Origin: Candidatus Uhrbacteria bacterium
Lineage (GTDB): Bacteria; Patescibacteriota; Patescibacteriia; UBA9934
DNA length: 64,000 nt
NCBI GenBank assembly: GCA_018664485.1
Contig: JABJOE010000002.1
Location: 11,896 to 75,895 of the forward strand
Direction of reading: 5' to 3'
Part shown: positions 2,829 through 45,933 of the stretch, piece after piece
Position numbering within the stretch: the first letter of the stretch is position 1
Layout: the number at the start of each line of letters is the position of its first letter
The notes under the pieces: generated by a model
What the model was told of the DNA's origin: nothing
Seen by the model: the letters and a program-made list of their open reading frames with translations, nothing else
Databases searched by the model: none
Made by a program: the position numbers and the translations under genes

Positions 2829-2845
2829 CTCCTCGTACAACTTCG

Positions 2846-2875
2846 ATGCCCCGGGTCGCTTGCGACTCGGGGCAT
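2846..2875. terminator. strong GC hairpin between convergent genes (bidirectional terminator)
   Basis: Perfect 8-bp stem atgccccg/cggggcat whose 14-nt loop is itself partly paired; it sits between the 1608..2828 (+) stop and the 2900 (-) stop. Confidence 0.55.
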
Positions 2876-2899
2876 TATTGCACCTATATTTAACTGTCT

Positions 2900-5290
2900 C
2901 TAGTCTTCCGCACCGGCATCATCCACAACCACTTCTTCAACTCCTTCAAGTGGCACAGGAACTTCCTCGGCTGCGGCAATTCCAGCTTCTAGCCTCGCAA
3001 TTTGAGCAAGTACAGTTTCATGACCCGGATTACTTTCCAAAATAGCCAAAAGTGCATCGATAGCTGATTCTTGGTCTCCTAACTCCTCATACACAGCAGC
3101 CAAATACCAATGCGCATTTGCATAGCTTGGTGATAATGCGACAGTACGTTCCAACTCAACTTGTGCAGCGTCGATCTTCCCCTGTCGTAGATAGAGCAGC
3201 CCAAGCTGGAAAGAAACCCCTACATCATAAGGGTTTGCATCGCGCAAAACCACCATCCTATTTATTGCCTCCGACACATTACCGGAACGTTCGTATGCAA
3301 GTGCCAAGTAGTAGTAGGCTATCGCGTAATCGTCTTTAAGAGTAAGTGCATACTCCAAATTTTCAATAGATTCTACCAAGGCCTCGCGACGGCTAGTCTC
3401 GGCCACAGCAGCATACTCCTCATCATCACTTGTTGTGAGTACTGAGAGCTGGTCTGCATGCACAACATATGCACGAGACAACGCAACATAATACTTTGGA
3501 TTATTTGGAGCGAGTTCAATACTCTTTTGATACGCACCAATAGCTAGAACATCTGACCCTGAAATAAGCGGTGCAATCTCTCTATATATATCACCCAACA
3601 ATGTCCAATTGAGTACATTGCTTTCCGAAATATCTACGGCCGTCTGGGCAGCGGTCAGCGATCGTTCAACAGCAGACTGAATTTCACTTGGATGAGCTTC
3701 GTTATCTGACACCACTTCAACGGTCTTTGCCAAATATGCCTGCGCTAAATTCCGTTGATAGACATCGCTCCAACGATTCAACCGCACAGCATTATCTAGC
3801 TGCACAATCACTTCATCAGTTGTAGCTCCTTGCTCACTTAATGACACCGCTTTACCGAAAGCAACCTCCGCCCCATAGCGTGCACCTGACACGAATAGCA
3901 TGGTCAACAGAAGAACGTTCGTTATCACAAAACCGAATGTTGTGAGCAGTGCTGTTCTCGATGATTTCGAGAACGTAAATGTTTTTTCCTTCAAAATAAC
4001 CTGGCTTACCAAAATTGCCGTAAGCAGCCAGAACACAAATGATAACGTCATATTGCTCACATAGAAAAACTGAGCAAAGACACTCAACGTCCAACCACCA
4101 AATGTAACAAATGTCATTTTCCACTCATCATCACTTTGGTTTTGAACCATCAATCGCATTAGCGCCATTGCAGCCAACCAAAGCACCATCAATAAGTATA
4201 GTGCAACCGGTATTACGCCGAGTGTTGAGGTCATTGTTAGAATGTGGCTTGAACTTCGATCAAATTGTTGATCCCAAACAAGTGTTTCGTTGATTTCCGG
4301 CGAATGATACTGAGCGTAATCCATTACGAATGTTCCAGGCCCAGATCCAAATGCCCATGATTCGTTTTGCAATGTTTGCTTTGTTATGTCCCAGCTATAT
4401 TGATGAGAAATGCTCAATTCCGATGCAAATCCATTTGGCACAACGCTCGGAAGGAATAGGAAGAGCAGTGCAATGACAAATAATGCCATTGGGATTACAA
4501 ACCTACCAACTTGTGGGAATTCTTTGATCCGCAAAAGCGCAAACGAGAACAACAGTCCGGTACCTATCAACAACATCGCCCAGAACAGCCAGTAATCAAG
4601 TGCTAGCAAAATAATCGTTGATCCGATAATCGTAATAAGCATTGATAGACGTACGGCCCCACCCACAAAACCATCAGGCAAAATTCGTCTTTTCGCTGTT
4701 CGGTCATCAACTAACCACACGCTCGCAGATAGAACCGTCATTATTGATAGATATGCGCCCATTGCATAGGGAGTCCCGACTACTTCAATTGCACTCCATG
4801 AAAAGAACTGTACGAAAGATAAAACTGTAACAATCGCTGAGCTTAAAAACAGCGCACTCCACACACGTCGCTGAGTTACGGTTTCAGGTAACGTATGCGC
4901 ACCAATTGCCATCAATGCACAAAACGAAATTAATGAAATAACGCTTGTATACTCTTGCCCCGCATGACCAACCCAGCTTGTAAACGGCGCAATAGAGAAA
5001 ACGGCAGACACAACAACACCCACAACGAATGCAATTAGAAGCCACCACCATATGTGGGACCTTACTTCTGCTTTTCGCTCAACTACCATCGCGCCTAACC
5101 ATGCGATCATCGCAAGTGAGCTTCCTAAAATAAGAAGTGTTTGCTTGTTGATCTCGAGTGCATCGAGCGTCCACGGAAGCGCAAGAAGAGGGATCGCAAA
5201 TGTGAGTAAATAAAACAATCCGCGTGCTGCAGATCTGTACCACTGCGCAAGGCGGACCGTTTGTTTTGTTTGAGAGTTCATAGAACTCAT
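2900..5290 (-). CDS. O-antigen ligase (WaaL/RfaL-like) polytopic membrane protein fused to C-terminal TPR repeats
   Basis: About 12 transmembrane helices with the large periplasmic loop typical of Wzy_C/O-antigen-ligase proteins. The C-terminal roughly 300 aa carry repeated TPR-like motifs (AYYYLALAYERSGNVSEAI, AHWYLAAVYEELGDQESAI). Confidence 0.65.
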   Translation of the reverse strand: MSSMNSQTKQTVRLAQWYRSAARGLFYLLTFAIPLLALPWTLDALEINKQTLLILGSSLAMIAWLGAMVVERKAEVRSHIWWWLLIAFVVGVVVSAVFSIAPFTSWVGHAGQEYTSVISLISFCALMAIGAHTLPETVTQRRVWSALFLSSAIVTVLSFVQFFSWSAIEVVGTPYAMGAYLSIMTVLSASVWLVDDRTAKRRILPDGFVGGAVRLSMLITIIGSTIILLALDYWLFWAMLLIGTGLLFSFALLRIKEFPQVGRFVIPMALFVIALLFLFLPSVVPNGFASELSISHQYSWDITKQTLQNESWAFGSGPGTFVMDYAQYHSPEINETLVWDQQFDRSSSHILTMTSTLGVIPVALYLLMVLWLAAMALMRLMVQNQSDDEWKMTFVTFGGWTLSVFAQFFYVSNMTLSFVFWLLTAILVSQVILKEKTFTFSKSSRTALLTTFGFVITNVLLLTMLFVSGARYGAEVAFGKAVSLSEQGATTDEVIVQLDNAVRLNRWSDVYQRNLAQAYLAKTVEVVSDNEAHPSEIQSAVERSLTAAQTAVDISESNVLNWTLLGDIYREIAPLISGSDVLAIGAYQKSIELAPNNPKYYVALSRAYVVHADQLSVLTTSDDEEYAAVAETSRREALVESIENLEYALTLKDDYAIAYYYLALAYERSGNVSEAINRMVVLRDANPYDVGVSFQLGLLYLRQGKIDAAQVELERTVALSPSYANAHWYLAAVYEELGDQESAIDALLAILESNPGHETVLAQIARLEAGIAAAEEVPVPLEGVEEVVVDDAGAED

Positions 5291-5301: not shown

Positions 5302-8300
5302 CTATACTGTCTCGTCGTCGATATCACCCTCTAACTCGCTACTCGTATCTGCAATTTCTTGCTCATCGTCTACGGTGTCGGCGTCTACATCATCCTGCGC
5401 AACCTCCGTGACTTCATCTTGCACATCATCAACCTGAACGTCGGACTCCTCTTCTTCCTCAGAGACAACTTCTTCTTCGACTACATCTTCTTCGATTAAT
5501 TCCTCTTCAACAGCTTCCTCAACTATCTCTTCTTCCTGCTCGTCCTCAACTATTTCCTCAACCTCTTCCTCGTCCGTTGTCTCATCAATATCTTCTACAG
5601 AATCGACTATCTCTTCTTGCTCATCGTCGTTATCCTCATCCTCGGCCTCGTCTGTATCGACCGCCTCTGCCGCGTCATCACTGTCGTCAACTTCTGAGTC
5701 TGTGCCATCAAGTTGTTCGCTCTGACTGTCTTCCTCATCAATCTCCTCTTCCTCTTCAGGCTGTTCATCGTCAGTTTCCTCAGGCGCGTGATCTTTCAAA
5801 TATGCAATAACCATCCAATCAACAGTTGCAGTTGATCGAACTTCATCAATCGCCGACTCTCGAATGCTAAATCCTTCATTGTCACGATTAACAGCGTAAA
5901 GTGGACCGGTTGGCTGATCAGCCGTTAGGAAAACTCGATATGAAACGCCCTGAGCAATAATGTCGTTAAAGAGTGCGTCTTCAAATTCAAAGTTAACTGC
6001 AGCCGCACCATCTTTCAGATTTGCAGTTCCGGATAACTCAACTGTTTGCTGTCGAGAGAATGTCGCATATGTCTCCACATCTTCATTCTGATATGACCGA
6101 ACAACCTGCACCACGGCACCATTCGTTGTAATAGTTCCGTCTTGCGCGATGGACCATTGCTGACCAACTCCTGTGATTGCAGCGATGTTAATGATCTGAC
6201 CGGTGTTGAAATTAACCGTTCCAGACAGATCTAATGTTGATGCGTTGGCAAGATTTGAGATCAAACTGTCGGCAAGTGGCGCCTCGTCAACCGGACCGCC
6301 GTCATAATAGGAAGGTCGGACAAATACACTCACCGAACCTACCTCTCCTTGGAATGCTTCCATAGCGTAACCGAGAATTGGTCCCGCCTCCGTTGCTTTC
6401 ATTGCGTAACCGTCTTTACTTGAAGTTGTAAGTGGATCTCCGATTGAGATATCTCCATTTTCACCTGACACATAAGTTGGTACACGACCAGAAAGTGCTA
6501 CCGGTACATGGCCCTCAATATTCTCACCCGCCAAGAACCCAGGTTGTGTTGAAATGATACCTGCGATCCGTTGATCATATGTTATTCCGGTCGATCGCAT
6601 TACGTGCTCATCGTCATTTGCAAAGACAACTACTTCTCCCGGAGCAAGCGTCTGCGCTGACGGGAACATCTCTGCAAAGTCATATGATCCAGCACCCCAA
6701 CCAGAAGCATTGGTACGCATGAAGTCTCCACCAGCACCTGACGATCCGTCGTAGTAAATGTATGTATCAGTTTGAAGTGTTCCGCGGTCAGATGGGTACA
6801 GTCGACCAGCGATTGCCAGATCTCCATCGTTATTTACGAAAGCAACTTCATCCTCATCGTCATTTAATATAGAAAGTTTGTAGTCACTACTGTCAGTGAC
6901 ATCTGTAAACATACTCATTCCAATTGTACTATCGGTATCGCCCAACATTGTAAGCGCTGATGAGATAGCTACGTCCCCGTCATCGTCAGAAATGATTCCG
7001 ACACCATGCCATCCTGGCTGAATGAATACCTGGATCAATCCGGTACCTGAGCTATGAGCTTCAAGCGCACGACCAATCGTGTATCCGACTCCTGTAGCTT
7101 TCATTGCAACTCCGTTTACCGATGATAGCGCTACGTAATCACCTATCGAGATTGACCCACCGTCAGTATTTACGTTGACCGGAACCTGTCCTAGAAGAGC
7201 TACAGGTACATACCCGCCGTCATCTTGCCAATTGTCTGTCCAGTTACCAAGTGTATTTGGATTTACAGATAAAACACCAATCACCCCCGAAGGATCATTT
7301 GCAACAACAGCTTCTCCAGATGAGGTTAGAGAAATTACATCACCTCTGACGAAATCTGCGTATGTCCCATCAAATAACTCGGCGTAATCAGACCCTGCAG
7401 ACGCAGCGGTCACCCCTCCAGACCCATCACCCTCGATGGCTCCGATAGGTGTACCTGTAGCATCTCGAAATTCAATATAATCACAGGCAGTTGTCGGAGT
7501 GCTTCCCGATGCTGTAGAACAGGCTTGAATAGAAATTCCCTGCCTATTATCGTTATCGCCCCCATTTACAAATGACGCCATGAATGTACTTGTACTCGCG
7601 TCAACTACAAGTACCTGTGAAGAGCTCGTTCCGGCTCCATTAATTTCAAAGGCGTCCCACACAAATAGATCACCAGCTCCAGTCGCCACGTTTGCGGTAG
7701 TAGGAGTAGAGGTGGACTCGATGTGAGTTGCAGAGCCATAGAAATATCCGGCATAGTTATTCGTTCCTGCACTCGCCTGACCACGTACACCGTAACGAGT
7801 TGTCCCTTCAGTATTTGAACTAAAGTCTCCACCCATAGTTGTAGTCGCTGTTCCAGAACCTGCTGTAACATTTCCAAGCACACCTTTAGCCGTTGTAATC
7901 ACACCATTGAGTGGGATCACCTGACCGTGCACACCAATTACATTTCCAACCGTCGTAGCTGCAGCATCATTCGTTCCCTGCCCTAAAACACCAACAACCC
8001 TGTTGCCTACAGCAGTTCCGTTAGTGGACTGGTTTTCAGATACACCTTTGATCGCATACATCTCTTCGATCTGTCCGGATGATGACGTGTTAACCACCTC
8101 AGACAAAAAACCAATAGGCTCATGTAATTCTCCTCCACCACCTTCACTTACGTCTGACACAAGTCTGACATGTGACCCTACTGCCTGATACGTACCGGCA
8201 CCTCCACTTGCACCAGCAGATACGGTTCCTGAGGTATCAAATGCATACGTAACCCCTGGTGACGCTCCATAATCTGGCGCTGCAAAGTGCTCTATATTAC

Positions 8301-10182
8301 CTCCCTGGAAGCTCCATCTGTCTGCTGTCGTATATGAAATTGAACCCGTATCCCCTGCACTCGAGTACATATTAAAATCTGCGCTAGTACCCGCACCGTC
8401 ACCAAGACGCATCAAATTTGCAGACTCATCAATCGAAAATGCTGATGCCAAAACCGATGCACCTACAGAAAAATCATCAGTTGACGCGGTCGATACAAGT
8501 CCTGACCCTGAATTCAATGTTAAATTCCCACTTCCGCCAGATAGAACTTCCAGTGCTCCAGTAGACGCAAAAGTTGTATCATCGATAGTTAAAGTTCCGC
8601 TTGAATTTATTGTTAGAGCATCTCCTCCATCACCAATAATAGTTGCCTGATCAAAAGTTAGATCACCACCATCGATATCCAGAAGCATGTCGCCTGTAGT
8701 CTGGATCTCACCATCCATATAGTTTGTTGAGAAAGCTCCAGCCGTAAATCCAATATCTGAGAACACCTCTCCGTCAGCCTCAATGCGGAACACGTTATTA
8801 TCAGTAGATCCGAAGTTTGTTTGGATATTAAAAATGTCTGCCGTATCAGTTGTTTCAGTTACATCAATAGACAATGCCATTCCCGCATCATTAGTAAAGT
8901 TCCCACCAACCAGATCCAAAATATTACCGGCAGTTAGCACGTCTGCTGTAATAACGGCAGCACTAGCAGTAGTCGCCTCGGAATCAATATCAAAGGCAGG
9001 TGCCGTCGCTGTATTGCTATCGATCAATAGCACTGACCCTGTTGCCGCAGTATTATTCTGAGTAATAGCAAGCAATGACCCTGTTTCATTTAGAGTTCCA
9101 CCGTTCGCAGTAGTACTCGCTCCTAAAATCGATACAAACGGACCAGATACATTTACAGTGGTAGAACCACCGTCTGACGTTAGATCGCGTACAATATCCA
9201 ACCCCATTCCAGTATATGCAGTTGTACCGGATGTATATGTCGCTGAATGATCTGCGCGTATCAATTTTCCGGAAGTAAGAGCAGAAGACGTCGAACCAAC
9301 ATCGATACCAATACCCGTTGTGAGCGCATCGAGCGACCAGCTCATTGCAGTCGCAGTTGTCAGACTATCTGCCAACAAAGCGATAGCTGGAGCAGTAGTT
9401 CCATTGTATGTGTATTGAATCTGTCTTGAGTCGTTTATATTCAGGAACTCCGTACCTGCATCCTGCAAAATAAAATCTCCAGTACTTTGAAGGTCGACTA
9501 TAAGATCAAGCCCGGCTCCATCTAGTGAAAACTCTAAATCAGTCGCATCAACATTCAAAATGGTGTCGCTACCGTTACTATAAACTTGGTCTAAATTAAA
9601 GTCTGCAGAGCTTAGACCATCAAGAGATTCGGCATTCAGCGCGTATGGAACGGAGTCAACCGCCTTTCTTGGCGTAAGAGTCTCACCTCCAATATAAATC
9701 TGTAAAAACGTAGATGCGTTGTCAGCGAATATCGAATCACCAATCGCAGCCCACGGTGAAGCATCACCAGTGTCACCCATTCGTGCAGTAAACAATCCGT
9801 CAGTAAGCGTTACGGTTCGAGCAGTCGTAGATGCTGGTGTGTCCGAGTCACAAGTAGCTGAAGAGTTTGACCAAAGACAAGTTCCACCCGTAACTGCAGA
9901 GTAAATCTCGAACTTCATGCTAGCGGTTGCATCTGTAACTGGCACACCATTAGAATCAAGAACTCTTCCCTGATATGAAACTGTATTTGGAGGTGAAACA
10001 GCTTGAGCGTCCTGAGGGCCATTAAACGTTACCCCAAACCCCATTGAAATCCCAAGCAACATCACAAGCAATGCTGTGATGCGCGTAAACATCTGTCGTA
10101 ATGATTTCACTCTGTAACTACTCATAAGGTTGGGACTTGGTCCCGCGTGGGCTGATACCCACACGTCTGATTTCTCAGACAT
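5302..10182 (-). CDS. giant (1626 aa) secreted/surface protein, Thr/Ser/Gly-rich beta-rich body with internal repeats and a poly-acidic tail of roughly 190 aa (D/E-rich)
   Basis: N-terminal signal/anchor (alternative start M20 at 10125: MSSYRVKSLRQMFTRITALLVMLLGISMG). Two internal repeats of about 60 aa are present (GQVPVNVNTDGGSISIGDYVAL..AMKATGVGYTIGRALEAH and GRVPTYVSGENGDISIGDPLTT..AMKATEAGPILGYAMEAF). The C-terminus is almost pure D/E (EEEEEIDEEDSQ...DDETV). Confidence 0.7.
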   Translation of the reverse strand: MSEKSDVWVSAHAGPSPNLMSSYRVKSLRQMFTRITALLVMLLGISMGFGVTFNGPQDAQAVSPPNTVSYQGRVLDSNGVPVTDATASMKFEIYSAVTGGTCLWSNSSATCDSDTPASTTARTVTLTDGLFTARMGDTGDASPWAAIGDSIFADNASTFLQIYIGGETLTPRKAVDSVPYALNAESLDGLSSADFNLDQVYSNGSDTILNVDATDLEFSLDGAGLDLIVDLQSTGDFILQDAGTEFLNINDSRQIQYTYNGTTAPAIALLADSLTTATAMSWSLDALTTGIGIDVGSTSSALTSGKLIRADHSATYTSGTTAYTGMGLDIVRDLTSDGGSTTVNVSGPFVSILGASTTANGGTLNETGSLLAITQNNTAATGSVLLIDSNTATAPAFDIDSEATTASAAVITADVLTAGNILDLVGGNFTNDAGMALSIDVTETTDTADIFNIQTNFGSTDNNVFRIEADGEVFSDIGFTAGAFSTNYMDGEIQTTGDMLLDIDGGDLTFDQATIIGDGGDALTINSSGTLTIDDTTFASTGALEVLSGGSGNLTLNSGSGLVSTASTDDFSVGASVLASAFSIDESANLMRLGDGAGTSADFNMYSSAGDTGSISYTTADRWSFQGGNIEHFAAPDYGASPGVTYAFDTSGTVSAGASGGAGTYQAVGSHVRLVSDVSEGGGGELHEPIGFLSEVVNTSSSGQIEEMYAIKGVSENQSTNGTAVGNRVVGVLGQGTNDAAATTVGNVIGVHGQVIPLNGVITTAKGVLGNVTAGSGTATTTMGGDFSSNTEGTTRYGVRGQASAGTNNYAGYFYGSATHIESTSTPTTANVATGAGDLFVWDAFEINGAGTSSSQVLVVDASTSTFMASFVNGGDNDNRQGISIQACSTASGSTPTTACDYIEFRDATGTPIGAIEGDGSGGVTAASAGSDYAELFDGTYADFVRGDVISLTSSGEAVVANDPSGVIGVLSVNPNTLGNWTDNWQDDGGYVPVALLGQVPVNVNTDGGSISIGDYVALSSVNGVAMKATGVGYTIGRALEAHSSGTGLIQVFIQPGWHGVGIISDDDGDVAISSALTMLGDTDSTIGMSMFTDVTDSSDYKLSILNDDEDEVAFVNNDGDLAIAGRLYPSDRGTLQTDTYIYYDGSSGAGGDFMRTNASGWGAGSYDFAEMFPSAQTLAPGEVVVFANDDEHVMRSTGITYDQRIAGIISTQPGFLAGENIEGHVPVALSGRVPTYVSGENGDISIGDPLTTSSKDGYAMKATEAGPILGYAMEAFQGEVGSVSVFVRPSYYDGGPVDEAPLADSLISNLANASTLDLSGTVNFNTGQIINIAAITGVGQQWSIAQDGTITTNGAVVQVVRSYQNEDVETYATFSRQQTVELSGTANLKDGAAAVNFEFEDALFNDIIAQGVSYRVFLTADQPTGPLYAVNRDNEGFSIRESAIDEVRSTATVDWMVIAYLKDHAPEETDDEQPEEEEEIDEEDSQSEQLDGTDSEVDDSDDAAEAVDTDEAEDEDNDDEQEEIVDSVEDIDETTDEEEVEEIVEDEQEEEIVEEAVEEELIEEDVVEEEVVSEEEEESDVQVDDVQDEVTEVAQDDVDADTVDDEQEIADTSSELEGDIDDETV

Positions 10183-10193
10183 GTGCTCACCAA

Positions 10194-12851
10194 CTATTCC
10201 TCGTCTTTCTTTTCGTTCTCCATATGTACGTCAACAGAAATAAGTTCAGGTTCTTTTTTCTCCGAATAATCAATTGGTCGAACCTCTGTTTTTTCAAATC
10301 CAGGCTTCTCGAACGTTACATAATACGTATTTGGTCCCGCCATAAAGGCGTAATGACCCTTTCCGTCTGTAAGTGTTGATTCGATTAGCTTGTTATATTT
10401 TGGCTCAAATAGACGAACCACAGTATTTGGAAGTGCTGCCTTGTCTGTCATTGTTCGAACGATTCCCCAACCTTTCTGCTTTTTGATGCGATGAGTCAGA
10501 ATACCCGTTGCCGCATACATGAATGCGTGTATGAAAACGATTACAAAACTCAGAACAGTCAGCTGAATAAATGCCACAACGATCGCAACTACCAGCCCTG
10601 CTATTGCAAGAACATGCTGGAAGATTCGAAGGAAGCGCATCATCACCAATCGTTTTGGCGTATGTAGTTTTTCAGCTTGATCAGGGTCCACTGGAATATT
10701 GGGCGTAAGAAGTACCTGATTTGCATCTACCTCAATCACACCACCCGTATATACATCAAGATAATTTCCATCTTGACTCTTTCCAGCCATGTAATCACTT
10801 GGGAATACGAATCCGGCTTTCGCCACCTTCATCGAATACCGACCCTCTTTCACCTTAAAGAAGAACCTACCCTCTTTGTCAGTTACTCGTGTCTGAACGA
10901 TCTTCCCCTGCTCACTATACAAACGAACGATAGCAAGGTCGACGGGCAATTTTGTAATACCGTTGTAGACTAGTCCGAATTTTTGTCGTCTTCGTCGTGC
11001 GAAGAACAGAATCGGCGCTGTAAATAGATAGCGCAGATAGTTCAACAAGTTAAATGATGTGGCAAGAACTCCAACGCTTGTCGCTGCGACAACGACGGTT
11101 ACCGGTGACGCCACTTCTGCGGCCACCTGAACCTCTGGGATTTCTCTTACCTCATTTACAACATCACTTATATCCGACACAAATGCTTGTGCTACATCAA
11201 CTGCCGTACCAACCACAGCAACGACTGCTATGCTCGATTCGTCAGACTCCGTATCCACAACCGGAGCCTCTATAGGCTCGAGTTCAATACTCGGATTCAA
11301 AATTCCATTTGAAACGAAAATTTGTTTCTCTGCATCGATGTATCCGGATTTTCCAGCCGTCACAAGATAAGAACCGTTTGGCACATACCAAGCGAATGCT
11401 CCATCTTGCAAGACTGTAATGGGATTTGACTGATCGTAGTCAGTTGCATCCCACTGATGTAACGAGTCTCCGCCTTCATAAACTATGACAATTGCGCCGT
11501 CAACCGGCGTACGCTCGTCGTCCAAAAGCTGGTAAACAACCCCTAAACTCTGAACGTTCCAATCGTAATAGTCAGTTATCACTTCGTCGTCACCATATGT
11601 AACAACAACCGTCGCTACAGTATCTTCAGACGCAGTTTCAACGACGCCTGCGTAGACATCGTCATCCGTTTGTGACAATTCGTATTGATTATCTCCAATA
11701 ACTAGGATAACCGTCGTGACATCATCTGAGTCGGCAACCTCAACAGATACAACTACCTCTGTGTCTGGTAATACATCAATATCTTCATCCTCCCCGAGGA
11801 AAACACTACCGTCATTACTGCTTACGGTTGTGTCGAAAGATCTTGAGTTGTCTGATCCCGATCCTGAATCACCAGAGTCATCATCGTCTGTCGATGAATC
11901 ATCTTCTGTGCCAGGGTCTTCGTCATCAGTATCGTCATCTGGATCATCGGAGTCTCCTCCCGATCCGCCGCCGCCTCCTCCGCCATCACCTGAATCGCCT
12001 CCGGAGTCTCCTCCGGAATCTCCGTCTCCGTCTCCACCACCGCCGTCGTCACCAGAATCTCCTGGGTCATCTTCTGAATCATCACCTGGGTCATCATCGG
12101 TGTCATCTCCAGGTTCCTCTTCATCATCACCTGGATCTTCTTCGGTGTCGTCACCGGGATCATCTTCATCGTCACCCGGATCATCATCGTCACCATCTCC
12201 GTCATCACCGGAATCTCCGCCATCGTCCCCTCCGCCGCCGCCTCCTCCACCTCCGCCTCCACCTCCACCTCCTGATTCTGGAATGGTAGCTGAAACCGTT
12301 CCGTCATCATTTGATGCGATTGGCAAAACTATCGTTCCGCCCATTCCTGAGGTACCGGCAACTGTTAGAAAGTATGAAGCTGCGTTTGATGGGTTTGTGA
12401 TCTGAAACGCTCCCGTTCCAGAGGATGTTGCGTTCGTTCCTATTTCCACAATAACTTCACTCGCACTTGCAACCGCTCCGCCGTCACCGGCGCATATTGT
12501 AAAAGTTACAAGGCCTGAAGATATTGTCACAGATACTTCCTCTGATCCTGTGCAGTTTGCCGCAGTTGTCAGGTCAACCCCATCGTCTGATATGTCGATG
12601 GAGTCTTCTACTATAGAAGACGTTGTGAAACTCGATGGAAAATCGATTGTAAAGGTCTCCCCTTCGTCGATCGCGTCTGAGACGGTCATGACGATCTTGT
12701 GATTGGATGCTTGTGAAACCTCAATTGATGACGGCTGGTCATACGCTGACGTAAGCGTTGTTGCCGCCAATGTTAAAGACGCCCAAGGCCCTAGAAGGGC
12801 GCTCAAGGTTATAAGGACGATCCAGAAAATGGCACGAAATGTGCGAATCAT
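10194..12851 (-). CDS. large surface protein with poly-Gly and acidic D/G/P-rich low-complexity linkers, C-terminal TM helices and two carboxypeptidase-regulatory-like domains
   Basis: The ORF runs to 12926; the probable start is M26 (MIRTFRAIFWIVLITLSALLGPWASLTLA, signal-like). It carries a 15-residue Gly run and a DDPGDDxxxDPGDD repeat. Two C-terminal segments match the CarbopepD_reg pattern (TDKEGRFFFKVKEGRYSMKVAKAGF; TDGKGHYAFMAGPNTYYVTFEKPGF), following transmembrane helices. Confidence 0.65.
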   Translation of the reverse strand: MIRTFRAIFWIVLITLSALLGPWASLTLAATTLTSAYDQPSSIEVSQASNHKIVMTVSDAIDEGETFTIDFPSSFTTSSIVEDSIDISDDGVDLTTAANCTGSEEVSVTISSGLVTFTICAGDGGAVASASEVIVEIGTNATSSGTGAFQITNPSNAASYFLTVAGTSGMGGTIVLPIASNDDGTVSATIPESGGGGGGGGGGGGGGGDDGGDSGDDGDGDDDDPGDDEDDPGDDTEEDPGDDEEEPGDDTDDDPGDDSEDDPGDSGDDGGGGDGDGDSGGDSGGDSGDGGGGGGGSGGDSDDPDDDTDDEDPGTEDDSSTDDDDSGDSGSGSDNSRSFDTTVSSNDGSVFLGEDEDIDVLPDTEVVVSVEVADSDDVTTVILVIGDNQYELSQTDDDVYAGVVETASEDTVATVVVTYGDDEVITDYYDWNVQSLGVVYQLLDDERTPVDGAIVIVYEGGDSLHQWDATDYDQSNPITVLQDGAFAWYVPNGSYLVTAGKSGYIDAEKQIFVSNGILNPSIELEPIEAPVVDTESDESSIAVVAVVGTAVDVAQAFVSDISDVVNEVREIPEVQVAAEVASPVTVVVAATSVGVLATSFNLLNYLRYLFTAPILFFARRRRQKFGLVYNGITKLPVDLAIVRLYSEQGKIVQTRVTDKEGRFFFKVKEGRYSMKVAKAGFVFPSDYMAGKSQDGNYLDVYTGGVIEVDANQVLLTPNIPVDPDQAEKLHTPKRLVMMRFLRIFQHVLAIAGLVVAIVVAFIQLTVLSFVIVFIHAFMYAATGILTHRIKKQKGWGIVRTMTDKAALPNTVVRLFEPKYNKLIESTLTDGKGHYAFMAGPNTYYVTFEKPGFEKTEVRPIDYSEKKEPELISVDVHMENEKKDEE

Positions 12852-20426: not shown

Positions 20427-23030
20427 TTACTTCATCTCGCCCCAGTTGTTACCGATCTCAACATCAACTAAAAGTGGAACTTCTGAATTCCAAATACCTT
20501 CCATCATTGATCGTAGTTCCGGTACGATCTCATCAACCTTCGAAGCATTAACTTCAAACACAAGTTCATCGTGGACTTGCAACAACAACTCAACATCAAC
20601 GTGATCGCGCGTCCATTTTTCAACAACTAACATCGCCATTTTAATCAGGTCGGCCTGAGTTCCCTGAATCGGCATGTTAACCGCCATGCGCTCTGCAGCC
20701 GCAACCAACATTCCGATACCTCCGTTGATCTCCGGCAAATGTCGACGGCGACCGAAAAGCGTCTCAACGAATTCAAACTCGTGAGCACGCTTTTTTGTTT
20801 CCTCAATGTAATTTGCAATACCTGGATGAAGGTCGAAGTAGCGTGCAATAAATATCTTTGCTTCTTCTTTGGAAAGTCCGCTCGACTTTGCAAGATTACG
20901 TGAACCCATTCCGTATAGAATTCCAAAGTTCACTCCCTTGGCAGCTGAACGTTCTTCTTTTGTAACTTCTTCTTCTGGCTTATCTAAAATTTGTGCAGAC
21001 ACGCGACGGTGAATGTCGGCACCCGCTTTAAACGCGTCTATGAAAGCTTTATCATCAGCAAGTACAGCGGCAATTCGTAATTCGAACTGCGAGTAGTCGA
21101 TTGCTATCAATGTCTTTCCTTTCGGTGCAACGAATGCCTTACGGATTTCACGCCCGAGCTCGGTTCGAGTTGGAATGTTTTGTAGATTTGGTTCCGATGA
21201 TGACAGACGACCCGTTGCTGCAACCGTTTGGTTAAACGATGTATGAATTCGTCCGTCTTCTTTGCGTAACACAGGAAGCGCGTCGACATACGTAGACTTC
21301 AACTTCGCAATCTCACGATACTTTGAAATGAATGGAATGATTTCGTGCGCCTCCCACAACTTTTCAAGTTCACTCGCGGCAGTTGAAAAACTTTTCTTCG
21401 TTTTTTTAATTTTCTTTGTCGGCAATCCTAAATCTTCAAACAAAATATCCGACAACTGGGCAGGGGAGTTGATATTAAATTCGCGACCAGCAAGTTTGTG
21501 AATTTTTTCTGTGAGTTCCGCGATCTCACCTGCAAATCTTACCGACATCTCAGATAATTTCTTCTCGTCCAACATAATTCCAACTCGTTCCATACGATAC
21601 AGAACTGGAATGAGCGGCATCTCTACCTCATATGCGATCTTCTCCAACTTTTCCTCATCAATAATATCTACAAAGTCTCTGTGAAGATCCCAGATCTTTT
21701 TCGTGCAATCAATTGCGTCTGTCAGATCAACGGTTTCTTTCAAATATTCCTGTACCAATGTTTCGAGCTCAAACTTGCGTGCTGCCGAATCCAATAAATA
21801 CGCAGCGACCATCGTGTCGAACAATGTAGTCGTGTCCGGTGACCAGGAAAGCTCATGCATAACAGCTTTCAGATCATGGCCTACGATAAGTTCCGCACTA
21901 TCAAGTACCTTGATAACCTTCTCACCGTCACTCACTGATACAACGCTTACTTTCTTACCGTCCGACACAGCGAGAGATGCACCTGCGCCTCCAAACAAGT
22001 CCTGCTGACCTGCCAAGAGGTGAACGCAAAGTTTTTTACCGTCTAATTCTGAAAGTTTAACGGTCGCAGCTTTTTTTGTTTTTTTCTTCTTGGGTTCAAC
22101 CACGGCTTCCGGCTCCTCTTCAACCTCTTTTTCTGCGACCAGCCCCCTTGCCGCGTACTTTTTAAGCAGGTTACGAAACTCCAAGTCGCGGAATCGGGCC
22201 ACAAGAGCTTCAGCGTCTGGCTTTTTAACTTTTGCGTCCGACAATTTAAATCCACCAAGATCAACATCCAAAACTATCGTCACAAGGAACTTCATTTGTT
22301 GAGCTAGCTCTTCTTGACCACGAAACTTCTTTGCAAACTTTTCAACCACGTCACCTTTTTCAATGGCTGCATAAATTCCTTCAAGCGTGTCGTACTCTTT
22401 CAAAAGAGTCGTTGCTGTTTTGGCGCCAACTCCAGTAATCCCAGGAAGGTTATCAGAACTGTCTCCCATCATCGCCTTTAAATCTATCAACTGATCAGTT
22501 CGCAACTCATAGCGTTCCATCACAGCAGCTTCGTCGTATGTTTTTGTTTGACTAACTCCTTTCACAAAAAAGATAACTTCTGCCTGACCGTCTTTTACAA
22601 GCTGTAGAGAATCCAAATCACCGGTTACAATTTGCACCATCAAGTCAGACTTGCATCCGAATTTCTTTGCGATGGTTCCGATCACGTCGTCAGCCTCCAT
22701 GCCGGCAACTGACAGTGAAGGAATATTGTAATGCTTCAGTAGGTCCTGAATGATTTCAATCTGAGCGTAGAGCTCATCGGGTCTTTTCTCACGGTTCGCT
22801 TTGTATTCTTTAAATGCTTCATGACGAAAAGTTCCACCCGGCAAGTCCCATGCGACAGCCATGTACTCAGGGTTGAACCTCTCGAGCATCTTCTCAACCG
22901 TCATCGTAAAGCCGTATGCAGCGTGCACCACAATGCCGTCTTTTGTAGTAAGTGGGGGTAGCGCATGCCATGCACGGTGCAAAAGCGCGTTACCGTCTAA
23001 TATAATAAAAGATTTTGGTTTGTCGGACAT
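20427..23030 (-). CDS. polA: DNA polymerase I (5'-3' exonuclease + 3'-5' exonuclease-like + polymerase domains)
   Basis: N-terminal FEN-like domain (ILDGNALLHRAWHALP), C-terminal PolA motifs (RRxAKxxNFGxxYG; VHDELVFE); 867 aa. Confidence 0.95.
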   Translation of the reverse strand: MSDKPKSFIILDGNALLHRAWHALPPLTTKDGIVVHAAYGFTMTVEKMLERFNPEYMAVAWDLPGGTFRHEAFKEYKANREKRPDELYAQIEIIQDLLKHYNIPSLSVAGMEADDVIGTIAKKFGCKSDLMVQIVTGDLDSLQLVKDGQAEVIFFVKGVSQTKTYDEAAVMERYELRTDQLIDLKAMMGDSSDNLPGITGVGAKTATTLLKEYDTLEGIYAAIEKGDVVEKFAKKFRGQEELAQQMKFLVTIVLDVDLGGFKLSDAKVKKPDAEALVARFRDLEFRNLLKKYAARGLVAEKEVEEEPEAVVEPKKKKTKKAATVKLSELDGKKLCVHLLAGQQDLFGGAGASLAVSDGKKVSVVSVSDGEKVIKVLDSAELIVGHDLKAVMHELSWSPDTTTLFDTMVAAYLLDSAARKFELETLVQEYLKETVDLTDAIDCTKKIWDLHRDFVDIIDEEKLEKIAYEVEMPLIPVLYRMERVGIMLDEKKLSEMSVRFAGEIAELTEKIHKLAGREFNINSPAQLSDILFEDLGLPTKKIKKTKKSFSTAASELEKLWEAHEIIPFISKYREIAKLKSTYVDALPVLRKEDGRIHTSFNQTVAATGRLSSSEPNLQNIPTRTELGREIRKAFVAPKGKTLIAIDYSQFELRIAAVLADDKAFIDAFKAGADIHRRVSAQILDKPEEEVTKEERSAAKGVNFGILYGMGSRNLAKSSGLSKEEAKIFIARYFDLHPGIANYIEETKKRAHEFEFVETLFGRRRHLPEINGGIGMLVAAAERMAVNMPIQGTQADLIKMAMLVVEKWTRDHVDVELLLQVHDELVFEVNASKVDEIVPELRSMMEGIWNSEVPLLVDVEIGNNWGEMK

Positions 23031-23225
23031 ATATATTCAAGTTCACCCTGGCGATAACAGCGAGCCAGATAGTGGTTTCTTTGAGTATATTATCACGAAA
23101 GGTCCGATGCACTATGTAAGCCATAGCCAGATGCAGAAAGCCCCCACCAGCCGAAGCCGATGGGGAACTTGAGAGTCACGACCCCGAGAGGGTCGGACTG
23201 TTGTCGGGACGAGGCGAGGCCTCGT

Positions 23226-24182
23226 CTATGCGGCGGCGCGCTGGTTGCTGAAGGCCGTACCGATCGGGGTCTCCAGAGCCAACTCGGTGGCCGGGACGTC
23301 GAAGCGGACGGACTCGTCCTTGTCCACGATGGTGCACAGGTCGAGCTTGACCAGGCCACGACGACCGAGGGTCTGCATGACGATGCCCTTGGTCGGACCA
23401 AGGAGGGTCAGCTCGATGCCGGTGTTGGTCACCTTGAAGGCCCAGCCGTAGTTGCCGATGGACACGGTGGCCATCACGTCGGTGTCGCTGTAGACGCGGG
23501 TTGCGATCGGGGTCTTGTTGTCGTCGTAGCCCTTGAGCTTGGAGATGTCGATCTTGCCGTACCGAGCGCCGTCGAGGAACTTCGAGATCTTGAAGTCGTC
23601 GGAGTGCTTGGCGATGGCGAGCTTCATGTCCTTGCTCGGGATCACGGTCATGACGGCGCTCTTGCCATCGACCACGTCGAGGTGACCGGACACGGACAGG
23701 GCCACGGTGGTCTTGCCGATGTTCACCTTCTCGAAGCTGAACTCGCCGGTCTGCGTACCGATGACGGTGGACCAGGAGGAGCCGGGGTCGACGATCTTGG
23801 TGATGCCGGTGTCGTCGTAGTCGAGGGCCTGGCTGAAGTCGAGACGCTGCGCGGTGAAGTGCAGGACGTCGTTCCAGCCGTCGTCGTTGAGCTCGGTGTC
23901 GATGTCGCCGTTGGCGCTCAGAGCCGTCGCGAAGATCATGCCGTTGGTGTTCACGCCGCGAACGATGCGGTTGGTGTTGTCGGGCAGATCACTCACGTTG
24001 GAGCTGACGTAGAAGGTGCGGTCGGCCTGGTCGTAGCTGACGTGGCTGTTGGAGCCGGCGTCGAACAGGACGTCGTCGCTCATGTCGTCGTCGCTGTCCA
24101 TGTTCACGACCTTGTAGGGCGCGGTGGGCATGGTGGCGAAGAGAGCGAGGAAGGTCAGGATCTGGATCTTGTTGGTATGCAA
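23226..24182 (-). CDS. secreted hypothetical protein encoded in a GC-rich (about 63%) island
   Basis: Probable TTG start giving the signal peptide MHTNKIQILTFLALFATMPTAPYK (ORF track extends to 24284). Composition is beta-rich; the long antisense ORF 23160..24389 is a GC artefact. A spot GC count gives about 63% against about 42% genome-typical. Confidence 0.5.
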   Translation of the reverse strand: MHTNKIQILTFLALFATMPTAPYKVVNMDSDDDMSDDVLFDAGSNSHVSYDQADRTFYVSSNVSDLPDNTNRIVRGVNTNGMIFATALSANGDIDTELNDDGWNDVLHFTAQRLDFSQALDYDDTGITKIVDPGSSWSTVIGTQTGEFSFEKVNIGKTTVALSVSGHLDVVDGKSAVMTVIPSKDMKLAIAKHSDDFKISKFLDGARYGKIDISKLKGYDDNKTPIATRVYSDTDVMATVSIGNYGWAFKVTNTGIELTLLGPTKGIVMQTLGRRGLVKLDLCTIVDKDESVRFDVPATELALETPIGTAFSNQRAAA

Positions 24183-24429
24183 GGTGCACTCTTTTTGAAG
24201 TGGACTCGTAAGTCCGGGTTGTTGCTCTATCCAAGGTTGGGGTCGAGACGGCGCAATTCTGCCACAGCTAGCGAATCCTGTCAAGGGATTTGTGCAGGTA
24301 TCGGAAAAGTGGCCATAAAAGTAAAAGAAATATTTATATCTAATCTAAGCCAATATATAAGTCCACAGGCACCGGGCGTTACACAATGATGTGTCGTATA
24401 ATGCTAATATAACGTTTCTATACCTATAT

Positions 24430-25347
24430 ATGGCAACAAAATCAGTCATACAAAAGCATATTCGTCGATATCTTGAGTACCTTGAAGTTGAGCGAGGTCG
24501 CTCAGCACGTACCGTCCGTAACTACGACTTCTACCTCACGCGCTTTGCGACATGGGCAGAATTCCCAAACCCATCAAAAATCGATAAAGAGCTCCTTCGC
24601 CGATATCGCCTTCACCTCAATCGAGACATAGAAGGGCGCGACGAACCGACTCTTAAAAAGAGCACTCAGAATTATCATCTAATTGCTCTTCGTAACTTTC
24701 TTAAATATCTTTCACGCAACGACATAAAAACAATGTCGCCTGATAAGATCGAGTTAGCTAAAACCGGAACACGAAAAGTTGAGTTCCTCGAAGAAGATGA
24801 ACTGCGACGAATGTTCGGAGTGCTCGAAGATGCTGACGGGCTCATCGGTAAGCGAGACCGCGCTATGGTATACATGCTTTTTTCAACCGGCCTTCGTGTT
24901 TCAGAGTTGGCGAATTTAAAAATCGACCAAGTAAATTTGAAGCGTGAAGAGTTCACAATAAAGGGGAAGGGGTCTAAACATCGTGTTGTGTTTGTGTCGG
25001 AGAAAGCACGCAAGGCAGTGAAAGAATATCTCGACGCACGTGGTGACACGAGCCCATATATGTTTGTCGGTCACGATCGCGCAAAGGCGTCGCGCGAAAA
25101 AATGCCTGTGTCGCCCCGCACAGTGCAACGAACTATCGAACGCTACGCCGCGGAAGCCGGAATCACAAAACGCATCACACCTCACACTCTGCGTCACACA
25201 TTCGCAACCGACCTTCTGCAAAATGGTGCAGACATAAGGTCAGTGCAAGCGATGCTCGGCCACGAGTCAATTACTACAACTCAAATCTACACCCACGTCA
25301 CCGACCGTAAACTAAAAGCTGTACACAAAAAGTTTCATAATAAATAA
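24430..25347 (+). CDS. site-specific tyrosine recombinase, XerC/XerD family
   Basis: C-terminal catalytic region LRHTFATDLLQNGADIRSVQAMLGHESITTTQIYTHV with the R..HxxR..Y signature. N-terminal core-binding domain present. ORF from 24391; the likely start is MATKSVIQKH. Confidence 0.85.
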   Translation: MATKSVIQKHIRRYLEYLEVERGRSARTVRNYDFYLTRFATWAEFPNPSKIDKELLRRYRLHLNRDIEGRDEPTLKKSTQNYHLIALRNFLKYLSRNDIKTMSPDKIELAKTGTRKVEFLEEDELRRMFGVLEDADGLIGKRDRAMVYMLFSTGLRVSELANLKIDQVNLKREEFTIKGKGSKHRVVFVSEKARKAVKEYLDARGDTSPYMFVGHDRAKASREKMPVSPRTVQRTIERYAAEAGITKRITPHTLRHTFATDLLQNGADIRSVQAMLGHESITTTQIYTHVTDRKLKAVHKKFHNK

Positions 25348-25377: not shown

Positions 25378-25749
25378 ATGCAAGGTAAAACAAAAACTTT
25401 TCAAAAAATTGTAGCCTGGCAACTTGCGCATGAATTCGTGCAAGAGGTTTACAAGGTGACAATTGAGTTTCCCCAAGAAGAAATTTACGGTATCACTAGC
25501 CAGATACGTCGTGCGTCAATTTCTATAGCAACCAATATAGTAGAAGGTCGAGCTCGCGGATCAACAAAAGACTTTATCAGATTTCTGCACATGTCTCGTG
25601 GATCTCTTGAAGAAGTAGAATACCTTCTCATAGCAAGCCGCGATCTTGGATATATCTCAGCAGATAATTACAACACGTTAGACTCAAAGCTATCACGAAC
25701 GGGAGCTGTTCTAAATGGCCTAATTCGCTCCCTACGTCTTAAATCCTGA
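25378..25749 (+). CDS. four-helix-bundle protein (23S rRNA intervening-sequence protein family)
   Basis: Matches the family motif IATNIVEGRARGSTKDFIRFLHMSRGSLEEVEYLLIASRDLGYI. Confidence 0.8.
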   Translation: MQGKTKTFQKIVAWQLAHEFVQEVYKVTIEFPQEEIYGITSQIRRASISIATNIVEGRARGSTKDFIRFLHMSRGSLEEVEYLLIASRDLGYISADNYNTLDSKLSRTGAVLNGLIRSLRLKS

Positions 25750-40650: not shown

Positions 40651-40968
40651 TCAGCCTCGTGCCGGGGCAGGTGTCTTCTCCAAGAAGGTGGCGACACCGG
40701 GCCTCGTCTTGGCAGCTTCGGTAAGGACGTAAACGAGTCGCTTCAAGTGCGTCTCACGCCCCTGAATCTCTCCAAGGTTCGCACTCACCCGTGCGACAAC
40801 CAGGCTGTCCGAGCACCCGGGGTCCTTGAGCATCAGCTCGATGCGAGCAACTTCAACGGCGACTGGATCACGCCCCTTGGTCACACGCATGTAGGTGTCT
40901 TGGAGTTCGCCGATCACATAGTGTTGCAATATGGCGCCAATGTTGCGGAAAAAATCAAACCTCATCAC
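40651..40968 (-). CDS. hypothetical 105-aa protein, paralog A of a tandem GC-rich cassette
   Basis: About 60% GC. Homologous to the 41113..41430 product, with shared residues such as QH.V.G...DT, DP.C.D.L, LG and RPG.A.F....PA.AR; no known domain. Confidence 0.55.
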   Translation of the reverse strand: MMRFDFFRNIGAILQHYVIGELQDTYMRVTKGRDPVAVEVARIELMLKDPGCSDSLVVARVSANLGEIQGRETHLKRLVYVLTEAAKTRPGVATFLEKTPAPARG

Positions 40969-41112: not shown

Positions 41113-41430
41113 TTAGTCTCGAGCGAGAGCCGGTTCTTCGGCCACGAATACTGCGAGGCCAGGTCGATCTTGGGCAGCGCTATGAAGCACGGCAACGAGC
41201 TGAAGAATATCCGGTTCAGAACGCAGAAAGTCTCCAAGGATGTTGTTGACCTTCATAATAATCAGCCAGTCCGGACACTCCGGGTCGCCGACCATCGCCC
41301 TGATGCGGTTCAGCGAAGCCGCCAACGGATGAACACCGTATATAAGCCGGTCCCACGTATCACTGACGGCACCTAGGACAGAGTGTTGAAACACAGCGCT
41401 CACACTTGTACGAATCAAAGCAGAGTTCAT
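41113..41430 (-). CDS. hypothetical 105-aa protein, paralog B of a tandem GC-rich cassette
   Basis: Same length and about 35% amino-acid identity to paralog A; its own promoter-like repeat lies upstream and the GC hairpin downstream. Confidence 0.55.
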   Translation of the reverse strand: MNSALIRTSVSAVFQHSVLGAVSDTWDRLIYGVHPLAASLNRIRAMVGDPECPDWLIIMKVNNILGDFLRSEPDILQLVAVLHSAAQDRPGLAVFVAEEPALARD

Positions 41431-45186: not shown

Positions 45187-45404
45187 CCGCCCTTGCCCCA
45201 CGGATGACATCGCACGATTCTCTTTACCCCCTTTATCGATCCGATAACTATTCCGTATTTTAAAATCGACTGTCGGGTGTACTCAGAGCAAGTGGGGTGA
45301 AACTTACAAACTCCATATGGAAAAAGTGGCCGAAGCCACCCATGATCTCCCGAGAGAGTGCGTTGATATACAGATATTATAAATGCCGCCAGCCCTCGCA
45401 TCAT
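45168..45404 (-). CDS. yidD: membrane protein insertion efficiency factor YidD
   Basis: ISVYQRTLSGDHGWLRPLFPYGVCKFHPTCSEY...HPWGKGGHDPV is the canonical sequence. Confidence 0.9.
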   Translation of the reverse strand: MMRGLAAFIISVYQRTLSGDHGWLRPLFPYGVCKFHPTCSEYTRQSILKYGIVIGSIKGVKRIVRCHPWGKGGHDPVK

Positions 45405-45742
45405 ACAACGAGTTTTGCTTTTTTGAGCACGCCCATGAGGCGTTCTTTTTTTGCGTCGTAGTCTAGGTCAAGCGCGCCCTTAGACGTAAGTAGCATCACA
45501 TCCATACCTGGCTTGATACCAGTAAGATTAGTGCGAATAATCTCGCGATACTGACGACGCACGCGATTACGTTTCACAGCACTCTTGTGAACCTTGATTC
45601 CAACAACAACCGCAAACCTTGAGTCCGTACCGCCATTTGGACGAAACTTTACTCCGCAAACAGAATCGAAAACGCTCCGACCCTTCTTTAGGGTCAGCTT
45701 CACATCCTTCTCGTGTCGTAGTCTATTTTTTTGTTCAAACAT
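45401..45742 (-). CDS. rnpA: ribonuclease P protein component
   Basis: RLRHEKDVKLTLKKGRSV...RVRRQYREIIR RNR motif; overlaps yidD by 4 nt. Confidence 0.85.
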   Translation of the reverse strand: MFEQKNRLRHEKDVKLTLKKGRSVFDSVCGVKFRPNGGTDSRFAVVVGIKVHKSAVKRNRVRRQYREIIRTNLTGIKPGMDVMLLTSKGALDLDYDAKKERLMGVLKKAKLVV

Positions 45743-45750
45743 ACAAACAA

Positions 45751-45775
45751 AGTGGGCGGGTAAATCCCGTCCACT
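45751..45775 (-). terminator. intergenic hairpin (attenuator-like) between rpmH and rnpA
   Basis: agtgggcggg-taaat-cccgtccact, a 10-bp stem with one mismatch. Confidence 0.4.
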
Positions 45776-45780
45776 TTATC

Positions 45781-45933
45781 TTATCTCGCTCGAGCTGCAA
45801 CCGCCAGTCTCTTACGACCTTTGGCCATGCGGCGCTTGAGAAGCGCCCGTCCGGTTTTCGTTCTCATTCGTGCTCGGAAACCGTGTTTACGCGCTCGGCG
45901 ACGTTTCTTTGGTTGATACGTGCGCTTAGGCAT
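45781..45933 (-). CDS. rpmH: 50S ribosomal protein L34 (absent from the ORF track, under 60 aa)
   Basis: Manual translation [50 protein letters not shown]; the classic rpmH-rnpA-yidD arrangement. Confidence 0.9.

Follow-up and report, generated by a model that had tools for sequence, protein, structure and literature searches.

The locus described here raises a simple question: is a block of DNA rich in guanine plus cytosine (GC), lying directly beside a recombinase gene, a recent acquisition or a native part of its genome? The block is found in a 64,000-nucleotide (nt) stretch of a Candidatus Uhrbacteria bacterium genome (contig JABJOE010000002.1, positions 11,896 to 75,895), referred to below as the window, and is wedged between polA and xer, the gene for a Xer-type tyrosine recombinase. 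A preliminary description regarded it as a single-gene island, perhaps acquired through the recombinase from a donor of high GC content, for instance an actinobacterial host. With high probability, however, the gene in the block is native and selectively maintained. Taken together, the evidence somewhat favours the combined reading that the block is a native, vertically kept, monocistronic unit occupying a slot upstream of polA, that its silent sites are under selection and that its product is a hypervariable surface or secreted protein.

A GC-rich gene in the slot upstream of polA

The GC content of the window was profiled in intervals of 200 nt, and in intervals of 1100 nt for ranking. Between about 23100 and 24200 the 200-nt values are 0.59-0.67, compared to 0.36-0.51 on both sides. 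The most GC-rich 1100-nt intervals of the 64 kb start at 23101 and 23151 (0.619; mean 0.467, standard deviation 0.032). The sharp jump originally placed at about 23150-24290 is therefore real, and the stretch 23133-24182 constitutes the GC maximum of the 64 kb (0.62 versus 0.467). The jump resides almost wholly in the third codon positions. Counted from its true start, the minus-strand gene has a GC content of 0.54, 0.39 and 0.94 at the first, second and third codon positions (GC1, GC2 and GC3), or 0.54, 0.42 and 0.89 for the open reading frame (ORF) as mechanically listed. The corresponding values of polA are 0.56, 0.34 and 0.44, and GC3 is about 0.44 in both neighbours, polA and xer. C accounts for 68% of the third positions of the window gene and A for 0.6%.

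The first relatives were found through homologs of the protein and further ones through polA homologs, and the counts given here cover 12 related Uhrbacteria loci whose DNA was read. Ten of these carry a GC-rich gene upstream of polA and co-oriented with it (the window, L001/L002, L090/L091, L092/L093, L094, L095, L097, L098, L099 and L100), encoding 295-319 residues. The gene is directly upstream of polA in eight loci; in the other two, either two small genes (L090/L091) or a gene resembling those of the 23S rRNA intervening sequence protein (IVP) family (L095) are positioned in between. The ten loci span polA identities of 57-100% and genome GC contents of 0.42-0.57. Identity to the window polA is 72% for L092/L093, 68% for L094, 61% for L097, 60% for L099, 59% for L095 and L098, and 57% for L100. 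Throughout this range GC3 is 0.83-0.99 in the gene versus 0.36-0.65 in polA, the slot ORFs of L092/L093, L094, L095 and L097-L100 having values of 0.88-0.99. All readable loci with a polA at least 57% identical carry the gene, except L096. The only other locus lacking it is L101, the polA of which is 55% identical, and in both L096 and L101 xer is found directly beside polA. Comparable ORFs with an excess of GC3 numbered 13 in 209 kb of Uhrbacteria loci, versus none in 1.0 Mb of control DNA from 80 unrelated polA loci.

The signals around the gene are also shared. A promoter of the form TTGAC(A/G)-17 nt-CAnnnT is present in ten of ten loci and is TG-extended in the window. A hairpin is situated shortly upstream of the Shine-Dalgarno sequence in every locus, with a stem sequence that differs in most of them, and the 3' flanks fold with z-scores of -4 to -8.8 in eight of nine loci.

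Homologs of the protein are confined to the clade. Among 5.8 billion proteins and 1.84 billion cluster representatives, only two were found. P0002 (51% identity) is encoded between xer and polA in the same gene order as in the window, with a GC3 of 0.975 compared to 0.54 for its polA. P0003 (about 22% identity) is encoded upstream of polA with two small genes between, and the respective values are 0.83 and 0.44. No homolog outside the clade was present in these protein sets, in GTDB genomes or in JGI contigs; a scan of GTDB genomes with a protein profile gave no match, and one with polA yielded distant phyla alone, which is uninformative.

Silent sites and the hypervariable product

In the ten copies, GC1 (0.54-0.61) and GC2 (0.31-0.40) match polA of the same genome, so that only GC3 is shifted. 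Lysine outnumbers arginine in nine of the ten, as in the host genome. Across the copies, A occupies 0-4%, T 0-13% and C 52-70% of the third positions. C is used nearly throughout the NNY codons and the four-fold boxes (N, any base; Y, pyrimidine; R, purine), and G mainly in NNR codons (AAG, GAG, CAG) as well as in CTG and GTG. In the four-fold boxes of the slot gene C greatly exceeds G, whereas the co-oriented neighbours, polA and holA, have more G than C. The bias thus opposes the local strand skew and is strand-specific. Furthermore, in the genomes with the lowest GC content (L099, L091 and L100) the untranslated regions (UTRs) have an ordinary GC content of 0.39-0.49, although GC3 of the coding sequence is 0.83-0.92. 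The strand asymmetry and the ordinary UTRs argue against a foreign origin or a regional, strand-symmetric process, and are more in keeping with selection that acts on the codons or the mRNA.

The product of the window gene is acidic (isoelectric point 4.7), Cys-poor and beta-rich, and has a short hydrophobic N terminus. The nine products analysed have isoelectric points of 4.6-5.5 and contain 0-3 Cys residues. A hydrophobic N-terminal stretch of 8-15 residues is found in all ten copies, and AlphaFold2 places a helix at residues 4-16 of the window protein. Of the secreted, beta-rich protein with a signal peptide that had been proposed, the hydrophobic N terminus and the beta-rich appearance stand, while the signal peptide itself is uncertain. 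The orphan family probably comprises secreted or cell-surface proteins.

The sequences of these proteins vary to an extent that does not follow the relatedness of the genomes. L001, L092 and L094 have polA proteins that are 76-79% identical, but their slot proteins have no detectable similarity. The window and L001 are 68.5% identical in polA and 51% identical in the slot protein, and the slot proteins of L091 and L095, which are still more distant, are detectable family members. Nucleotide identity is 0.66-0.79 in the flanks and 0.43-0.48 in the mismatched coding sequences, whereas the coding sequences of the window and L001 (0.69) are as similar as their flanks. Conserved flanks around mismatched coding segments imply that the coding segment was replaced by divergent alleles rather than that it evolves uniformly fast. 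The pattern points to alleles being replaced through recombination while selection favours their diversity, much as in S-layer or antigen cassettes. All alleles may nevertheless be ancient members of one family; those of L092 and L097 have a weak co-linear similarity (24% over 293-300 residues, E ~0.005). No paralog, fragment or silent cassette copy was detected by tblastn in the DNA read for the window and its relatives.

Since the proteins have diverged to 51% identity, to about 22% or beyond detection, the silent sites have had ample time to drift to the host composition. If these sites have indeed had time to equilibrate, their G/C state would be kept by selection on the mRNA or the translation of this particular gene. 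Such selection may have two components, a decoding preference for NNC codons and a general preference for G or C at the silent sites of this mRNA. A link between expression and selection for G+C at synonymous positions was reportedly described by Raghavan, Kelkar and Ochman in 2012 and by Kelkar et al. in 2015. One example of a mechanism would be mRNA stability combined with efficient and accurate NNC decoding, giving a high or robust output. Hairpin-rich UTRs together with G/C silent sites could then make a long-lived, robustly translated message. High expression, the surface location and the selective agent are all inferred. The idea that the product is abundant, that it is secreted or lies at the surface and that its mRNA is armoured is accordingly tentative, and its chances are put somewhat below even. 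A bolder version is doubtful. It holds that, in this clade of Patescibacteria, one hypervariable envelope-protein gene is under gene-specific G/C selection at every silent site. These sites, together with the 5' and 3' hairpins, would armour its mRNA, so that in ultra-small cells with few ribosomes the message lasts extremely long or withstands RNases directed at A/U. This version would also make the bias independent of tRNA-type translational selection, strand mutational bias, gene conversion and foreign origin.

Several observations weigh against the combined reading or parts of it. In the genes for ribosomal proteins S15 and S20, GC3 is close to the background, and codons ending in A are preferred within the four-fold boxes. 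The bias of the slot gene is therefore not simply an exaggerated form of ordinary translational selection, and this explanation, considered as a candidate in its own right, is weakened by the comparison. In two-fold boxes (NNC, AAG, CAG), S15 and S20 lean the same way as the slot gene, and 33 of 44 strongly shifted codons agree. TTG or GTG serves as the start codon in five of the ten copies, an unusual choice if expression were maximal. In some genomes the 3' flanks, too, have a high GC content (0.55-0.71), as could also result from a regional process, and L092 and L101 contain other, accessory-looking genes with extreme GC3. As to the product, the hydrophobic N termini are short, and a positive n-region is often missing. 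The AlphaFold2 model made with three sequences is mostly beta but weak, with a predicted local distance difference test score (pLDDT) of 51 and a predicted template modelling (TM) score of 0.54; with two sequences the pLDDT was 36. A check of the product by BLASTP and Foldseek had been suggested; protein sequence searches find clade members alone, and Foldseek gave no significant fold match in the PDB or BFVD. Its top PDB matches are beta-propellers with TM scores of 0.2-0.28, which were treated as uninformative. No anchoring or other domain was identified in Pfam, NCBIfam, PHROGs or PDB sequence searches.

It is of significance that GC3 of the slot gene is decoupled from GC1 and GC2, from the neighbouring non-coding DNA, from the strand skew and from the ribosomal protein genes, and thus offers a within-genome contrast for the study of synonymous selection. 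The locus also reveals an orphan hypervariable family in Candidatus Uhrbacteria, probably of envelope proteins, that is largely hidden in protein databases. If the product were a major surface protein, it could be among the factors that set phage or host specificity in this lineage of uncultured episymbionts.

Alternative origins, coding strand and layout of the unit

Among the other explanations, the one that survives best is a recombination hotspot refilled repeatedly from a GC-rich mobile pool (phage, plasmid or a high-GC relative), the GC3 being that of the pool. It would account for unrelated alleles in sister genomes, and accessory-looking genes with extreme GC3 do exist (hyp167 and a DIOX_N-domain gene with a GC1 of 0.71 in L092, and 2645-3301 in L101). 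However, GC1 and GC2 of the ten alleles fit low- to mid-GC genomes, no member was found among viral-like structures (BFVD), in PHROGs or in other lineages, the coding sequences of the window and L001 have diverged at the nucleotide rate of their flanks, and the promoter, the layout of the 5' UTR and the N terminus remain native. The explanation is considered improbable.

Genes with an extreme GC3 (0.79-0.95) at non-syntenic places are located at 2247-2750 (+) and 10534-11586 (-) in L092, at 2645-3301 (-) in L101 and at 2459-3157 (+) in L095. One of them, in L092, encodes the DIOX_N-domain oxygenase with raised GC1. The gene for hyp167 in L092 has a promoter and an initial transcribed sequence similar to those of the slot gene, TTGACA-17-TACAGT-GGCGCGTTG. 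These genes may represent an expression class or true acquisitions.

GC-biased gene conversion is slightly less credible still. Frequent recombination at a hypervariable locus would push silent sites towards G/C without any selection on codons, and the evidence for allele replacement and the GC-rich 3' flanks at several loci agree with this. Gene conversion would not, however, explain why C so strongly outnumbers G in four-fold boxes when the local skew runs the other way, nor the ordinary UTRs of L099, L091 and L100 beside their GC3-rich coding sequences. The rise in GC3, amounting to 0.4-0.5, also appears too large, since to our knowledge the effects reported for biased gene conversion in bacteria are far smaller.

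A recently acquired single-gene island, brought in from a high-GC source by the tyrosine recombinase encoded next to it, is very improbable. What speaks for it is the sharp GC jump beside a gene of the Phage_integrase family, the adjacency and the domain having both been confirmed, and a codon usage that superficially resembles that of high-GC bacteria. GC at the codon positions correlates with genomic GC, a relationship reportedly described by Muto and Osawa in 1987. A gene from a donor of 65-70% GC would show raised GC1 and GC2 and more arginine than lysine. In the slot gene all three properties are host-like and only GC3 is anomalous, so that there is no imprint of such a donor, nor does any other lineage have a homolog from which one could be named. 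The gene was expected to be patchy in related genomes if it were an island; instead, ten genomes with polA identities as low as 57% keep its position and an equally or even more extreme GC3. Conservation at the locus with the same GC is what the preliminary description had itself named as speaking against its view. The recombinase and the gene are not inherited together either, because L096 and L101 have Xer but lack the gene, and in L091 and L095 the gene is present with no Xer next to it. Xer itself is a core neighbour that lies outside the GC-rich unit; it is 74-89% identical among close relatives and 67-70% identical to that of L096. The promoter is native in type and conserved. A repeat search of 22800-24700, aimed at the attachment sites that integration would leave, gave no flanking direct repeat and only a 13-nt inverted pair. 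Acquisition by integration and an actinobacterial or other high-GC source can thus be set aside, and a false call of horizontal transfer is removed: the GC anomaly beside the recombinase is a native feature, conserved in the lineage.

The AT-rich inverted pair just mentioned (23025-23037 and 24352-24364, GGACATATATATT and AATATATAAGTCC, 92% complementary) encloses the complete unit, with one arm reaching over the start codon of polA, and is probably due to chance.

The gene is encoded by the minus strand, and the longer plus-strand ORF of 409 residues is an antisense artefact, as the preliminary description had recognized. The minus-strand product of 318 residues is identical to NCBI MBT4856598.1 ('hypothetical protein HON52_00205, Candidatus Uhrbacteria bacterium'). 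Both ORFs are in one codon phase, the plus ORF being the codon-by-codon reverse complement of the sense gene, and the GC1, GC2 and GC3 of the plus frame (0.83, 0.43 and 0.52) mirror those of the minus frame. The plus ORF stays open because TTA, CTA and TCA codons are absent from the sense gene, as they are from all nine of the copies counted. Val, Gly, Ala, Asp, Leu and Glu constitute 70% of its product, which has no Phe, Tyr or Trp and matches nothing in Pfam and NCBIfam. The Nei-Gojobori ratio of nonsynonymous to synonymous substitution rates (dN/dS) between the window and L001 is 1.08 for the sense and 0.73 for the antisense frame, but it is uninformative on the coding strand because codon bias suppresses dS (0.37). 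The strands were then compared by composition-corrected BLASTP at a larger divergence: between the window and L091, the sense products score 59 bits (E 1e-13) and the antisense products 22 bits (E 0.18). The promoter, Shine-Dalgarno sequence, start and terminator all face the sense direction. The proposed TTG start was correct, but the length was not: the start at 24182 gives 318 residues instead of 319. The TTG at 24284, where the mechanically listed ORF of 352 residues (23226-24284) begins, is part of the -35 box.

Coding by the plus strand, or by both strands, is hardly credible: although the ORF is long, its equivalents are open in every relative and gene callers picked this strand at six of the ten loci read and probably at one more, the openness follows merely from the missing codons, GC1 is 0.83-0.95, the composition is unnatural, the signals are oriented for the sense gene and the similarity collapses at a distance.

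The antisense ORF is annotated in L092 (NCBI record), L094, L097, L098, L099 and L100. It is apparently annotated as well in the P0013 contig, which is outside the loci whose DNA was read, and in L101 the antisense strand of a different gene with extreme GC3 has been annotated. This habit of the callers explains why no more than three true members of the family came out of exhaustive searches of protein sets. Homologs of the plus ORF would, moreover, be an unsafe ground for rejecting the artefact call.

The features of the unit and of its immediate surroundings are listed in Table 1. The unit as proposed would comprise a sigma-70-type promoter, a structured 5' UTR, a TTG start, an ORF of 318 codons and three GC-rich 3' hairpins, the last of which is terminator-like. 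The 195-nt 3' flank of the window gene has a minimum free energy of -74.2 kcal/mol (z = -4.5), and clear U-tracts follow the 3' hairpins in the relatives. A search of the UTRs against Rfam matched no family. An exceptional promoter was considered for the GC-rich gene and dropped, as perfect promoters of the type TTGACA-17-nAnnnT are common in the intergenic regions of the window (10 occurrences, including those upstream of the genes for S20 and trigger factor). The true start of Xer is likely the ATG at 24430.

Table 1. Layout of the GC-rich unit and its surroundings (positions in the window)
Feature	Position	Strand	Remarks
polA	20427..23030	-	core gene downstream of the GC-rich gene, same orientation
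Short conserved motif upstream of polA, TTCGTGATAATAT	~23075-23087	-	polA's own
Structured 3' UTR	23133..23225	-	hairpins 23209-23225, 23175-23198, 23142-23165
Terminator-like hairpin, then GCUUUCU	23142-23165, then 23133-23141	-	U-tract weak, below terminator-scan criterion
Coding sequence	23226..24182	-	TTG start 24182, 318 codons, TAG stop 23228-23226
Shine-Dalgarno-like sequence AAAGAGTG	24187-24194	-	
5' UTR hairpin GGACU-UACG-AGUCC	24202-24215	-	
5' UTR hairpin CCAACCTTGG	24231-24240	-	
Predicted 5' UTR, ~66 nt	24183..24249	-	putative transcription start
Extended -10, TGG-CAGAAT, then GC-rich discriminator TGCGCCGT	24256..24264	-	A2 and T6 of the hexamer kept in all loci
-35 box TTGACA	24279..24284	-	perfect hexamer, 17-nt spacer; TTGAC(A/G) at same relative place in 10/10 loci
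409-residue shadow ORF	23160..24389	+	artefact
Xer-type tyrosine recombinase	24391..25347	+	Phage_integrase and SAM-like domains; XerC/XerD/XerA-like; 74-82% identical in relatives

Next to xer, at 25378-25749 (+), is a small gene for a four-helix bundle. Its best match is the IVP family; a match to bAvd is below the cutoff. IVP-like genes recur near the slot in L095 (~5640-5990) and L099 (3303-3656). The one in L095 is flanked by inverted repeats of the GTAGAA type (GGGTAGAAAATGTAGAAGGTAGAA ... TTCTACATCTTCTACACTTTCTACAT), an arrangement that hints at a small unit able to move or invert. The bAvd-like neighbour prompted the idea that the slot gene is the target of a diversity-generating retroelement. 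This idea fails for want of a template repeat: blastn of 23100-24300 against the whole window gave no second copy longer than 29 nt, no search being aimed at reverse transcriptase genes.

In L001, a moderately GC-rich insert of about 290 nt (9560-9850) is positioned between xer and the slot promoter; it is absent from the window. The insert ends in a terminator-like GCTTTGCTGGTTTTTTT, has no Rfam match and may be an unannotated small RNA. Short purine-rich tandem motifs of the TAGGAGG/GTAGAA type occur after the slot terminator, before polA or the IVP-like gene, in L001 (11225-11290) and L095 (~5600-5660).

Elsewhere in the window, the second most GC-rich stretch (0.58), at 1608-2828 (+), encodes a protein of 406 residues rich in Gly, Ala, Thr and Ser. 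It has a signal-like N terminus and a hydrophobic C-terminal segment, and no Pfam match. GC is high at all three codon positions of this gene (0.61, 0.48 and 0.66), and a TTGACA-17-TAAATT promoter is situated ahead of it, at 1535. Two adjoining putative coding ORFs of the same length, 105 residues, occupy a GC-rich patch (0.52-0.56) at 40651-40968 (-) and 41113-41430 (-). They have no Pfam match and look like paralogs by eye only (FQHYVIGELQDTY versus FQHSVLGAVSDTW). The cumulative GC skew has a minimum near 49-51 kb, within the region ~45400-51000. The gene rnpA (Pfam Ribonuclease_P, 45401-45742) is near this minimum, as is the ORF 47907-49049, which we take to be dnaN. The region is a likely replication origin; polA and the slot gene would then both be leading-strand genes.

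Comparison with known systems

Genomic islands acquired by horizontal transfer share with this locus an abrupt local change in GC content next to the gene for a tyrosine recombinase. They differ from it in every other respect considered here: the anomaly is limited to GC3, its position is clade-wide, the recombinase is a core gene, and neither attachment-site repeats nor donor homologs accompany it. The 409-residue ORF resembles the shadow ORFs of high-GC genes in being an in-phase reverse complement, rich in Gly, Val, Asp and Ala, that is open in the absence of TTA, CTA and TCA codons. Unlike those, it is found in a genome of 47% GC, where callers do not expect one.

S-layer genes have efficient promoters, stabilising 5' UTRs, biased codons and signal peptides, and encode proteins of low sequence similarity (PMC3666127); S-layer cassette types switch via recombination (PMC5270738). 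The slot gene is comparable to the S-layer genes of Lactobacillus (slpA) and to the slpA cassette of Clostridioides difficile in several ways. It is monocistronic, with a consensus promoter, a structured 5' UTR and biased codons. Its product has an N-terminal hydrophobic leader and is acidic and Cys-poor. The similarity between relatives is very low, and alleles have apparently been swapped by recombination between conserved flanks. Judged by its sequence, the promoter would be strong and the 5' UTR would stabilise the mRNA. On the other hand, the slot protein has no SLH, CWB2 or other anchoring domain in Pfam or NCBIfam and is small (~33 kDa), non-ATG starts are frequent, and the near-total rule of G or C at third positions is not shared by the ribosomal protein genes of the same genomes. 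Membership of the slot protein in the S-layer class therefore cannot be claimed.

A published parallel to the silent-site bias is the expression-dependent fitness benefit of G+C-rich synonymous variants found in E. coli and Caulobacter (PMC4478552). That effect is a genome-wide tendency, measured by means of reporter genes, whereas here it would reach saturation (GC3 up to 0.99) in a single gene of genomes with a mid to low GC content. The two cases agree in that the silent sites are far richer in G+C than the adjacent non-coding DNA, and in that their G+C content exceeds what mutational or strand bias would predict and is tied to a single, putatively expressed gene. On the bolder version given above, the slot gene would be a natural, saturated example of a disputed selective force on synonymous G+C content.

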